Shown: positions 52,178 to 55,785 of the stretch, piece after piece
Position numbering within the stretch: the first letter of the stretch is position 1
How the letters are laid out: each line of letters opens with the position of its first letter
Notes under the pieces: generated by a model
Database searches by the model: none
Told to the model about the DNA's origin: nothing
Seen by the model: only the letters and a program-made list of their open reading frames with translations
Translations under genes and position numbers: made by a program
Virus record (IMG/VR): IMGVR_UViG_3300014205_000024
Location: 1,462 to 65,461 of that record
Source: a virus
Taxonomy: Duplodnaviria; Caudoviricetes
Direction: 5' to 3' (one strand)
Length of the DNA stretch: 64,000 bases

Positions 52178-52435
52178 ATGAATGAAAAAGAATACAAGCT
52201 GGCCAATGCCAAGGTTCTCGTCCGCGAACAAGAATCCAGAGTTCGTGAGGCCCAACGCAACCTCGATGAGGGTTACAAAAACGGAGAGGCCAAAATAGCC
52301 ATGGCCAAGTCTGATGCCGAACGTGACTATACGCACCTCAAAGAAGAACTCGAACGCGCCAAAATGCAACTGGAGCGCGAAAAAAATTGGGTTTTAAACT
52401 GCGAGGCCGACCTACAACGTGGCTACGAAGCATAA
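52178..52435 (+). CDS. coiled-coil hypothetical protein
   Basis: Heptad-rich. Confidence 0.6.
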   Translation: MNEKEYKLANAKVLVREQESRVREAQRNLDEGYKNGEAKIAMAKSDAERDYTHLKEELERAKMQLEREKNWVLNCEADLQRGYEA

Positions 52436-52442
52436 TACCTCT

Positions 52443-52928
52443 ATGACCGGACTCATTGCCATCCACAAGGACGCCATCCCCACCATCACTGCCATGCTCC
52501 CAGTCTGGCAGGCCACCCTCGATCACATCATCTGGGTCGTCAACCCACACGAAGTCTATCCCCGCTGGTTTCCCGACGGTCCCTACTTCATCCCCGATGG
52601 CTCCGGTCGCGACGGCCTCTCTTCCATCCAGAAACTCCACTCCGTCCTCCGCTATGCCCACACCCTCAATACCGACATCGCCCTCCTCGAATACGACTCC
52701 ACTCTCCTGACCAAGGCCCCCCACGCCCCTATCCCCAAAGCCTCCCTCTTCGGCTCCCAACTCTTCACCGCCAACCCCATCATGGGCGACAAGGGCTATC
52801 TCGCCCGTCGGTTCATGCACTCCCCATACCTCCTTTCCCATACCGCCATCGGCATCATCCTCGAAACCCTCGACCAGTGGCAGACCCCAGATGGTGGATA
52901 CTACTGGATCGAGAAGGGTATGGGTGAC
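52443..52928 (+). pseudogene. glycosyltransferase-like gene, 5' part (interrupted by cassettes)
   Basis: IALLEYDS DxD-like motif; C-ending codon bias stops near 52900. Confidence 0.6.
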
Positions 52929-52976
52929 GTATGCGTCAGCGACGGGCCTGGTTGGTCGTTGACCATGAAAGGAACT

Positions 52977-53297
52977 ATGCAAAACACAATAAACGAAGAT
53001 CTGGCAAAGCTGCCTACTGAGGAAAAAAGGAAATTCATGGACGCCTTCGCGGAAGGACTGGCCCGCGCTGGAATGCGGCGCGGATCAGCAAGGTCGATAA
53101 GTCTACGTGGTAGGACGCTGCCGAAGCTGGAATGCGGCATCTGCGGAACAATCCATACCGTCGAAGAGGTGCTAGAAAAGCAGAAATGCACTGTCTGCGA
53201 AAACGCAGGGCCAGAAAGCGAATGGAATGAATATCCGCCCAACAATAAACTGACCCAATCGGCTGATGATACAGCCAAACCAAAGGAGCAAAAGTGA
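52977..53297 (+). CDS. cassette 1 ORF, zinc-ribbon protein
   Basis: AAAGGA RBS; CGIC...CTVC; ends PN-NKLT in attC arm. Confidence 0.65.
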   Translation: MQNTINEDLAKLPTEEKRKFMDAFAEGLARAGMRRGSARSISLRGRTLPKLECGICGTIHTVEEVLEKQKCTVCENAGPESEWNEYPPNNKLTQSADDTAKPKEQK

Positions 53298-53361
53298 GTG
53301 ACGAAATGAAAGACAAACCGCAGGACGTTATAGCCGATTGTGGTCAAGCGGCTGGTTCGGA
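53237..53361 (-). mobile_element. attC site 1
   Basis: Minus strand: R'' TCCGAAC, L'' CTTGACC, CAATCGGCT/AGCCGATTG stem, L' GGTCAG, R' GTTGGGC. Confidence 0.85.
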
Positions 53362-53650
53362 ATTGTGGCTGCACATGGTCAATAACCATGGAATCCATCT
53401 GCTCGATTCAGAGGTCAATGACCTTAAGTGGGTGGCGCACCGCGAAATAATGGAGGAAAAAAACTTGATCGCCAACTCTGCGGCGAGAGAAATCGCGGTG
53501 CTGAGGGATGCTCTACGGACTGCAAAGAAAGACGCGCACAGTCCGGGCGTGTATGAAGCCATCGCCTATGCGCTAGGAGAAGCGGACGACATTGATGATA
53601 TTCCGAACGCAAAGCTCTCCCATGAGGCGGGCGGAGAGGAGCCACAATGA
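53294..53650 (+). CDS. cassette 2 ORF, hypothetical
   Basis: GTGA overlap inside attC1 loop; ends PN-AKLS in attC2. Confidence 0.65.
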   Translation: MSDEMKDKPQDVIADCGQAAGSELWLHMVNNHGIHLLDSEVNDLKWVAHREIMEEKNLIANSAAREIAVLRDALRTAKKDAHSPGVYEAIAYALGEADDIDDIPNAKLSHEAGGEEPQ

Positions 53651-53699
53651 CAGCTAGTGCGTCTCCGCCCGCCGAATTGGGAGCAGCGCCTTGTTCGCC
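53602..53699 (-). mobile_element. attC site 2
   Basis: Minus strand: R'' GGCGAAC, L'' CTGCTCCCA (extrahelical G), 12-bp stem, L' TGGGAGAG, R' GTTCGGA. Confidence 0.88.
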
Positions 53700-53922
53700 G
53701 TTTTTGGCCGACTTCAATGCGGCGCGTGTGATTTGGGGCCGCGCCGACGCATGGCGCGGAGAGGAACCGACGCTCGCACAGCGCGCCTGGAATGGCCTGC
53801 AATACTCCGCCGCCAAAACCGATCAATGGGGACCGCCCGAGCAGATGGCCCTCGAATCTGCGCAGGTCGAATTTGAGGCCCGGCTACGCCTCGCGTTTTC
53901 GGCGAACGCTGGCTCTGCCTAG
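53647..53922 (+). CDS. cassette 3 ORF, hypothetical
   Basis: GGAG RBS and ATGA overlap inside attC2 loop. Confidence 0.6.
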   Translation: MTASASPPAELGAAPCSPFLADFNAARVIWGRADAWRGEEPTLAQRAWNGLQYSAAKTDQWGPPEQMALESAQVEFEARLRLAFSANAGSA

Positions 53923-54116
53923 CCGCCGCTACCTCAGGCTTTACCCTCCGCTCCGTCGGCATCTCCCATGTCTCCAATACCATCCCCGACACCCAAACCC
54001 TCCACCACCTTCTCCAGACCCTCCCCCTCTCCATTCACGGCGTCAAAAACCCCTCCTTCTCCCCCATCCTCCTTGACTTCATCAAGGCCAACGACTACCT
54101 TCCATCTGTGGGGTAG
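53907..54116 (+). pseudogene. glycosyltransferase-like gene, 3' part
   Basis: RWLCLAAATSG...SNT...IHGVKT...; same frame and same NNC codon bias as 5' part; no own start codon. Confidence 0.65.
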
Positions 54117-54160
54117 ATCAGTCAGGCAGATCGTCGGGTTCAAATCCCGCCCCCGCAACC
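54107..54160 (+). pseudogene. tRNA-fMet-derived element lacking the anticodon arm
   Basis: 7-bp acceptor stem, GATC/GATC D-stem, CGGG-TTCAAAT-CCCG T-arm, ends GCAACC. Confidence 0.7.
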
Positions 54161-54168
54161 CTTTCAAC

Positions 54169-54243
54169 AAGTCTGTGGTGTAGCTGGTAGCACGGAAGCC
54201 TCCAAAACTTCCTGCCTCGGTTCGATCCCGAGCGGACTTGCCA
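54169..54243 (+). tRNA. trnW: tRNA-Trp (CCA)
   Basis: Full cloverleaf, loop CTCCAAA, GGTTCGATCC, encoded CCA. Confidence 0.92.
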
Positions 54244-55215: not shown

Positions 55216-55785
55216 CCCGGCCAGCGTATCGGAAAGGCTCGGAGTCCCATCCTCCCAGCCTTATGCACTATCGAGTGCCGCTTCCCTGCTGGGGAGGCGT
55301 CCTTCGGCAGTGAGATTCACTCGCAACAAGATGGTTGAGTGAGGATCACTTCCCCCTTGTCCTTGAGGATAAGCGGCTTACGGCAGGAAGGTGCTTTGGT
55401 AGCGCTGGATGATGGGATGTGTCTGTGCCTATGGGTAGGACCATACCATGCTGCCGTAAGATCGCCTTGTCCTGAGTCTAGAGCCTTAACGGGTTCTGGA
55501 AAGGGAAGGGAAAGACTGGTCGGTGGTGTGTTGTCTCCCTAGTGGGGAATCTCATGCTGCCGACAGACCTTGTCTTAGAAGTCTGGCCAATACCATGGAG
55601 AAAGGGATTGGCTAGACGGGTGGGAACAGGTGCTGTGTCTAGCTATAGGCAACCATCATAGGCTGCCCGTGCTGGAATCTGGTGCTTGTTCCTGATGGGT
55701 AAGGGTTTAGCCAGAACTGTGCCTTGGGGCATGGGGAAGGCGGGAAGTGTGTCCATCCCTATTGGGAACATCGTATGCTGCCGGG
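55216..55785 (+). ncRNA. candidate ~570-nt structured non-coding RNA
   Basis: No credible ORF; three nested long-range stems and many local hairpins. Confidence 0.55.

Follow-up and report, generated by a model that had tools for sequence, protein, structure and literature searches.

A probable integron-type cassette array of reversed polarity with in-frame crossover points, inserted in a phage gene

How can genes be joined so closely that the stop codon of one overlaps the start codon of the next, and still consist of units that move one by one? This question is raised by a short segment of the genome of a Caudoviricetes virus, recorded in IMG/VR as IMGVR_UViG_3300014205_000024. The record is complete (65,461 bp) and has direct terminal repeats. 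The stretch analysed here, called the window, comprises its positions 1,462 to 65,461, that is 64,000 nucleotides (nt), and all positions below are in window numbering unless a related locus is named. Three plus-strand open reading frames (ORFs) lie at 52965/52977-53297, 53294-53650 and 53647-53922, and hairpins with AAC...GTT ends lie where they meet. We conclude that the segment 52928-53906 is most probably a three-cassette array of the integron type, an attC cluster without an integrase, inserted in a phage gene, in which the cassettes have reverse polarity and the crossover lies in frame within the coding sequence. The cassettes have a defined anatomy and complementary ends, move between phages, keep a fixed crossover phase and take on protein tails that depend on their context.

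Cassette anatomy, end complementarity and mobility

The R' box of every attC site in an integron array is a hybrid, which predicts that the 3' R box pairs with the distal end of the same cassette and not with the neighbouring flank. In cassette 2 the R box GTTCGGAAT (53355-63) and ATTCCGAAC (53600-08) are perfect reverse complements, a run of 9 nt compared with 3 nt in situ. In cassette 3, GTTCGCCG (53693-700) pairs with CGGCGAAC (53900-07) over 8 nt compared with 5 nt in situ. Among 14 cassettes from the window and related loci, the median pairing with the distal end was 8 nt (runs of 9, 8, 4, 7, 9, 7, 8, 6, 5, 8, 8, 0, 12 and 8 nt), compared with a median of 3 nt for the flank in situ (in the same order 3, 5, 3, 3, 3, 3, 5, 7, 5, 3, 3, 3, 7 and 5 nt). 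We regard end complementarity as the decisive test, and it identifies the window units as real integron-type cassettes.

The attC sites were called by arm-pairing score, fold and homology breakpoints. The simple arm-pairing score has a background of about 0.5 matches per kb at scores of 20-24, and for this reason only scores of at least 24 or homology breakpoints were used. A common layout was found in the window and in the related loci L001, L002, L004, L023 and L045: AAC...GTT ends, an unpaired spacer of 4-5 nt and an L box. Hairpin lengths were 81-127 nt with loops of 24-67 nt, within the attC range of about 57-141 nt. In every one of the 10 strong hairpins, which measured 88-127 nt, single bases bulge out at one or two places (G or C, then T), and these bulges are confined to the coding strand's 3' arm. 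This placement suggests that the coding strand is the recombining 'bottom' strand, which would give these cassettes a polarity opposite to that of ordinary ones. The bulge side and the homology breakpoints concur on the reversed polarity, and the proposal of the preliminary description of this locus that the ORFs run antisense to the attC orientation is thereby borne out.

Cassette 1 (52928-53242) measures 315 bp if its left cut is placed at GA|C. Its ORF could start at ATG 52965 or ATG 52977, contains a CxxC...CxxC zinc-ribbon motif and reads ...PPN at the crossover. Family searches gave only weak rubredoxin-like and zinc-finger matches, and no ORF1 homologues were found. The attC of cassette 2 (53241-53363) runs from AAC through a spacer to the GACC and CAATCGGCT stems; AAGGAG and GTGA (53294-97) lie in its loop of 67 nt, a single T bulges from the 3' arm, and the R box follows. 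Cassette 2 itself (53243-53607, 365 bp) carries ORF2 (53294-53650, 118 amino acids), whose body ends ...DIPN and whose last 13 residues and stop are supplied by the hairpin of cassette 3. The protein database search with ORF2 returned ORF2 alone, and in the protein atlas ORF1 and ORF2 gave lead-level matches only (phage hypotheticals for ORF2). In the attC of cassette 3 (53600-53700) the R box pairs CGAAC with GTTCG, and 4-5 unpaired nt form the spacer. The L box measures 9 bp and includes a bulged C; it is followed by an internal loop of 3x4, a GC stem of 12 bp and a loop of 24 nt in which GAGGAG and ATGA (53647-50) are found. The extra bases are confined to the 3' arm. Its hairpin at 53604-53697 is the sole significant fold of the array (DNA fold -27.9 kcal/mol, z -4.2).

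Cassette 3 (53608-53906, 299 bp) carries ORF3 (53647-53922, 91 amino acids), which reads ...FSAN at the crossover. AlphaFold2, run with the family alignment, predicted a helical bundle for residues 18-88 (pLDDT 86), with low confidence for the N-terminal leader encoded by the hairpin and for the borrowed tail beyond the Asn. Substitutions among ORF3 relatives, counted by codon position, were 4/5/16 and 14/10/30, an excess at third positions, and together with the confident helical fold this establishes ORF3 as a genuine coding sequence. A fold search in PDB and BFVD found no match at E<=0.001, and the family search gave no match pointing to a function.

The relatives of ORF3 show where the mobile unit begins and ends. 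Among 1.8 billion representative proteins 12 homologues were found, and in their alignment the conserved core ends at an Asn that corresponds to N87 of ORF3 (AAC 53905), beyond which the tails are unrelated and of variable length. The distant homologues are P0006-P0015, one of them on a 314-kb contig, and DNA of closer relatives was recovered from metagenomes and IMG/VR (L001, L002/L003/L014, L004, L005/L006 and L007). In L001, L002/L003, L004 and L005/L006 the Asn codon again lies exactly at the homology breakpoint, followed by unrelated tails. The ORF3 cassette was thus met in five further phage contexts, and in each relative the similarity to it stops at the AAC that corresponds to 53905. 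The ORF3 cassettes of L002 and L004 are 98% identical from AAC 3888 to AAC/AAT 4223 and differ in both flanks, the matched segment being L002 3888-4232; a further cassette, L002 3020-3409, matches L004 2150-2538 and has different neighbours. Thus the same cassettes do occur in different neighbourhoods. In these comparisons the upstream hairpin travels with the ORF and the downstream hairpin stays behind, which indicates that the mobile unit is a hairpin plus the ORF downstream of it, cut at the 5' AAC on the coding strand.

All true contexts of the related cassettes are phage-like, with ERF and a YqaJ exonuclease, a DnaC-like loader, an M15 endolysin or a DnaB-like helicase nearby. The cargo of the related arrays is mostly unannotated, with one RusA as the exception. 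Five phages linked to L002 through a flanking gene (L047-L051) contain almost no strong hairpins. A DNA pattern made from one attC family matched 31 viral contigs, with about 50 matches expected by chance, and real hairpins were present in only three of them (L023, L026 and L045). The alignment-based scan (A3) of viral contigs found nothing, and L008-L013 and L015, from the contig and metagenome scans, were discarded as false matches to aminotransferases. In L007 (162-785) the ORF3 homologue lies within a longer fusion of 208 codons and lacks the Asn boundary, perhaps as a cassette that has become domesticated or fused.

Several hairpins are homologous to one another: L002 1846, L023 1653 and L045 4161, and also L002 3394 and L004 1861. 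The ORFs that begin at L002 1884, L023 1694 and L045 4201 have unrelated bodies and a common leader of about 19 residues (MN.KS.V.AG..SLDPL...). This leader is encoded by the loop and 3' arm of the homologous attC, so that the recombination site dictates the N-termini of different proteins. A conserved mini-hairpin of 46-48 nt (AAC..GAGGTGAGCCACGG..CCGTTGGC..GCCTGGTT) closes cassette blocks at L002 1300-1347 and L004 2524-2569, with AT-rich non-coding DNA after it. Its 3' end, GCCTGGTT, resembles a stretch on the left edge of the insert (window positions 52946-52953).

Reading phase at the crossover

The preliminary description had claimed that the crossover always falls in an in-frame Asn codon, that start and stop overlap in the attC loop and that no ORF stops within its own cassette. 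Coordinates and frames were recomputed. At AAC 53241-43 (CCC AAC), 53606-08 (CCG AAC) and 53905-07 (GCG AAC) the triplet is in frame in the incoming ORF, the third being a half-site at the junction of cassette and host DNA. The overlaps GTGA 53294-97 and ATGA 53647-50 lie in hairpin loops, and neither ORF2 nor ORF3 has a stop within its own cassette. The AAC-to-AAC spacings are 365 and 299 bp, both 2 mod 3, and in a circularised cassette the ORF spans the whole circle and ends on a TGA that overlaps its own start, for ORF2 as for ORF3. All of these claims held for the window. The length of 2 mod 3 is an arithmetic result of an in-frame AAC combined with a 4-nt NTGA overlap, and does not count as independent evidence. 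By our arithmetic, chance alone would produce the shared phase in the window with a probability of about 1/9 to 1/27, and the two NTGA endings with one of about 0.02, so that the case rests on comparative data.

We therefore turn to a scan of the loci that was blind to frame, accepted hairpins with an arm-pairing score of at least 24 and took the longest open stretch as the incoming frame. On the gene strand it found 16 hairpins. The incoming ORF reads the AAC in phase 0 at 13 of them (P = 1.2e-4, binomial with an expectation of one third), and at 12 of these 13 a stop followed inside the hairpin. The three misses were L026, a junction of phage gene and cassette; L002 1846, where the ORF ends in a TAA overlapping the AAC; and L023 1653, where the script took an overlapping frame and an alternative ORF (1341-1688) has the AAC in phase 0. 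Counted among the 13 is L045 975-1049, a strong 75-nt AAC...GTT hairpin that lies in frame inside an ORF of 320 amino acids, nuclease-like and with a C-terminal Cys cluster, and contains no stop; it is probably not a cassette boundary. In a curated set that includes the homology-breakpoint junctions, 17 non-homologous ORFs read the crossover AAC as Asn and one does not. The GTT that closes the same hairpins served as a control; it is distributed 6/5/2 over the phases of the downstream ORF and is not fixed. These findings extend the in-frame AAC from the window to related cassettes.

The other two regularities did not generalise in the same way. A length of 2 mod 3 is true of both window cassettes and fails as a rule, being found in 7 of 11 unique cassettes (two are 0 and two are 1 mod 3). 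The loop-located NTGA overlap, present at both window junctions, is exact at 7 of about 15 junctions overall; at the others stop and start are between -8 and +33 nt apart, and in a few cases the start comes shortly after the hairpin. Several cassettes carry their own Shine-Dalgarno motif in the loop, and are therefore self-sufficient and not devoid of a ribosome-binding site. Strong motifs of this kind precede both starts in the window (AAGGAG before 53294 and GAGGAG before 53647). Starts without a Shine-Dalgarno motif also occur and rely on the ATGA overlap.

Taken together, these data give a unit made of an attC hairpin and the ORF behind it, with its cut on the coding strand at the AAC that opens the hairpin. 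The ORF begins in or just past the hairpin loop, continues along the 3' arm and the cassette body, passes the recombination point as an in-frame AAC (Asn) and stops 1-22 codons further on inside the hairpin of the next unit, often on the next start (NTGA). No promoter or terminator was predicted inside the array, and expression would thus be by read-through from phage promoters, the local direction being plus. The anatomy suggests translational coupling. The phase rule may serve to bring the upstream ribosome into the 5' arm in the only frame that has its end in the loop, so that it would melt the hairpin and hand over to the next start. A broader proposal, which we put forward tentatively, is that phages keep a pool of reverse-polarity cassettes of their own under a phase rule resembling that of exons, with the crossover always at a phase-0 Asn. 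Any order of cassettes would then yield an intact, translationally coupled operon, and each move would swap only a short, disordered C-terminal tail. The inversion may also place the recombining strand on the lagging-strand template, with the genes co-directional with phage transcription and replication.

The interrupted phage gene and a possible route of insertion

At the insert (about 52928-53906) the GC skew turns positive, from -0.3 to -0.5 in the N-terminal part of the host gene to +0.1 to +0.2. This N-terminal part (52419-52928, plus strand, frame 0) reads in frame into cassette 1, and the two form a fusion ORF of 292 amino acids (52419-53297). The interrupted gene had no Pfam or PHROG family and no relatives in viral contigs, phage records or the 5.8-billion-protein index, and its uninterrupted form was consequently not recovered. 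At the left junction (52926-52958) a GAC that is in frame in the host ORF is followed by a 4-bp mini-hairpin and then by GTTGGTCG, which at 7/8 positions complements CGCCCAAC (53236-43), the distal end of cassette 1. The left junction is probably what remains of the attC of cassette 1 after decay had removed its upper stem and loop. No full hairpin folds at the left end, and a full-length attC there (for example 52865-52953) was rejected for its multibranch fold and low arm score. At the right junction (53905-53922) AA|C is followed by host DNA that provides the last four residues of ORF3 (AGSA) and its TAG stop. In frame 0 the C-terminal remnant of the interrupted gene (53907-54116) stays open; it shares the C-ending codon style of the N-terminal part and lacks a start codon.

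Conservative excision between the equivalent triplets GAC 52926 and AAC 53905 would remove 979 bp, which is 1 mod 3. After such an excision the host ORF would therefore end ...GMGD-AGSA at TAG 53920 and miss the frame-0 remnant. This mismatch could be explained by a later 1-nt indel, by imprecise insertion or by a deletion that also truncated the left attC. Among sequencing runs, the locus was present only in what is probably the source assembly, a landfill metagenome represented by contigs; neither variants nor joint or excised forms appeared in it, which speaks neither for nor against mobility. An intron or ribozyme was considered as the identity of the 979-bp insert and rejected, as an Rfam search at E<=1 gave tRNA-Trp alone.

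With respect to the route of insertion, we take the interrupted phage gene to be non-essential. By analogy with integron biochemistry, movement would be by a tyrosine recombinase of the IntI type that folds the coding strand and exchanges at AA|C. Entry into the phage gene was probably at a GWT-like secondary site, the left junction reading G|TC on the top strand. The left attC would then have decayed to a 28-nt remnant, joining the host ORF in frame to cassette 1.

Other features lie downstream of the insert. The tRNA-Trp (54169-54243; ARAGORN, and Rfam at 51 bits) directly follows the host-gene remnant. A tRNA-like fragment that the preliminary description had placed before it (54107-54243 region) was called by neither ARAGORN nor Rfam. 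The region 55216-55785 is G-rich and free of ORFs, with nested long-range complementarity, and Rfam found nothing there. Within it, a 66-nt AAC...GTT hairpin (55625-55690) has an arm score of 26, yet is not attC-like in appearance.

Alternative readings and known systems

Several observations weigh against an integron-type array with a selected phase. The left-end remnant hairpin (52926-52953), at 28 nt, falls short of the attC length range. The hairpin at 53241-53357 (9+4 bp stem, 67-nt loop, z -1.0) is energetically not significant and is validated through end complementarity rather than energy. No match to the tyrosine recombinase family PF00589 was found in this genome, complete at 65,461 bp, or in any of four related records, and the enzyme must on this reading act in trans, from the host or a co-infecting element. 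The minus-strand control of the blind scan gave 8/14 hairpins in phase 0 (P = 0.06), and AAC has a background phase-0 share of 37%, so that the null deviates from an exact third. The sample is small, and not all of its members are independent, L002, L003 and L004 being relatives of one another. At some junctions the gap measures 16-33 nt or the start lies past the hairpin. It could be argued from such weaknesses that these are ordinary small phage genes with chance or regulatory hairpins, shuffled by homologous or illegitimate recombination and with frames that agree by chance. The window holds only two complete cases, one with the weak hairpin, and low-score AAC...GTT matches resembling hairpins occur genome-wide at about 0.5 per kb. 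This explanation is already disfavoured and we consider it highly improbable, given the complementarity of distal ends, the identical AAC breakpoints in independent contexts, the one-sided bulges in 10/10 strong hairpins and the phase statistics.

Two further explanations accept the anatomy. The phase might have been inherited or imposed by sequence constraints, and not selected for coupling. The last codons of the ORFs are the R' box itself (TCG AAC, CCG AAC, GCG AAC), and attC families such as that with a GATGAGC L box, one phase of which gives an immediate TGA, would be copied together with their reading phase. The homologous hairpins with a common leader on unrelated bodies, the restriction of the exact NTGA overlap to just 7 of about 15 junctions, the longer gaps and the minus-strand control, which is not flat, are all in line with this. 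The phase belongs, however, to each upstream ORF body relative to its own end and is common to 17 non-homologous bodies; the GTT end is equally constrained by pairing and has no fixed phase; and all 12 phase-0 cassette hairpins of the blind scan give an in-phase stop inside the hairpin. We judge inherited phase to be quite unlikely. It is also conceivable that the exchange is native to phages and resembles that of integrons, being run by a recombinase other than bacterial IntI (Xer-like, or another tyrosine recombinase of some phages), and that the cassettes were not captured from bacterial integrons. Every context found is a phage, IntI was found in none of the loci, and the ORFs are all co-oriented with phage transcription and would be silent behind a canonical Pc promoter. 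Against this, IntI1 recombines phage attC sites (PMC9892861), no candidate phage recombinase was seen, and the sites match canonical attC bottom strands in the AAC cut site, the spacer and the G/T bulges on the far arm. A separate phage recombinase thus seems unlikely to us, and an integron-type array moved by an IntI-type enzyme is the reading that we carry into the comparison with known systems.

Integron cassettes are usually pictured as promoterless, with a gene that ends before the recombination site and one promoter in the platform. The sites described here share with canonical attC the imperfect palindrome, AAC...GTT R boxes, unpaired spacer, L box, extrahelical bases on one arm and variable loop. 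As in integrons, joined cassette ends form an R box, the same cassettes occur in different arrays, and the strand with bulges on its 3' arm is the one cut, at its AAC. In canonical cassettes the ORF is on the top strand, upstream of its own attC, with its stop before or within that site and the cut at the 3' GTT. Here, in contrast, the ORF is on the bottom strand downstream of its own attC, the crossover lies inside the coding sequence in a fixed phase, and the loop contains the start together with the stop of the neighbour. A complete integron has intI, an adjacent attI and a Pc promoter, none of which accompanies these cassettes, and the array is at most similar to the attC clusters without integrase (CALINs). 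The PeSL 'mobile regulatory cassettes' of the hyperplastic regions of T4-type phages are reportedly promoter-plus-stem-loop units that would move by homologous recombination (Arbiol, Comeau and Krisch 2010). They resemble the present cassettes in that small phage ORFs flanked by stem-loops are reportedly shuffled between related phages; unlike these, they are not known to be AAC/GTT sites with the end complementarity of circular cassettes.

CALINs are known from virulent and temperate phages, and IntI1 recombines some phage attC sites (Qi 2023, PMC9892861). The cassettes described there are oriented as in bacterial arrays, or divergent; inverted ORFs, in-frame crossover and swapping of tails were not described. 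Cleavage in the AAC triplet of the attC bottom strand has been reported, as have secondary genomic sites (attG) with the consensus GWT (bioRxiv 10.1101/2022.09.11.507474). Our insertion is similar in lying outside attI and inside a coding sequence, with a left junction (G|TC) close to GWT. It differs in that the target is a phage gene, the flanking attC has decayed and removal of the 979 bp fails to restore the downstream frame. A precedent for coupling is ORF-11 in attI1, a short upstream ORF ending at or near the cassette start that raises cassette translation, and attC hairpins are known to impede ribosomes (reviewed in PMC8876359). That coupling element is part of attI, and the cassette ORFs behind it have canonical orientation, whereas here every cassette would be the coupling ORF for the next.

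Thus attC clusters in phages, insertion at secondary sites and coupling by ORF-11 are already known. A full-text literature search found no description of reverse-polarity cassettes with in-frame crossover, and the inverted, frame-locked design appears in none of the literature searched. In this design the recombination site belongs to the coding sequence and to the translation signals, and the phase rule keeps every gene readable after a reshuffle. If general, it would account for the carriage and exchange of small accessory genes, in a form ready for expression, by virulent phages that lack an integrase, and it would provide a rule for annotation, namely to look for attC-like hairpins whose 5' end is an Asn codon. 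It would also be a counterpart, in the bacterial world, of phase-compatible exon shuffling.

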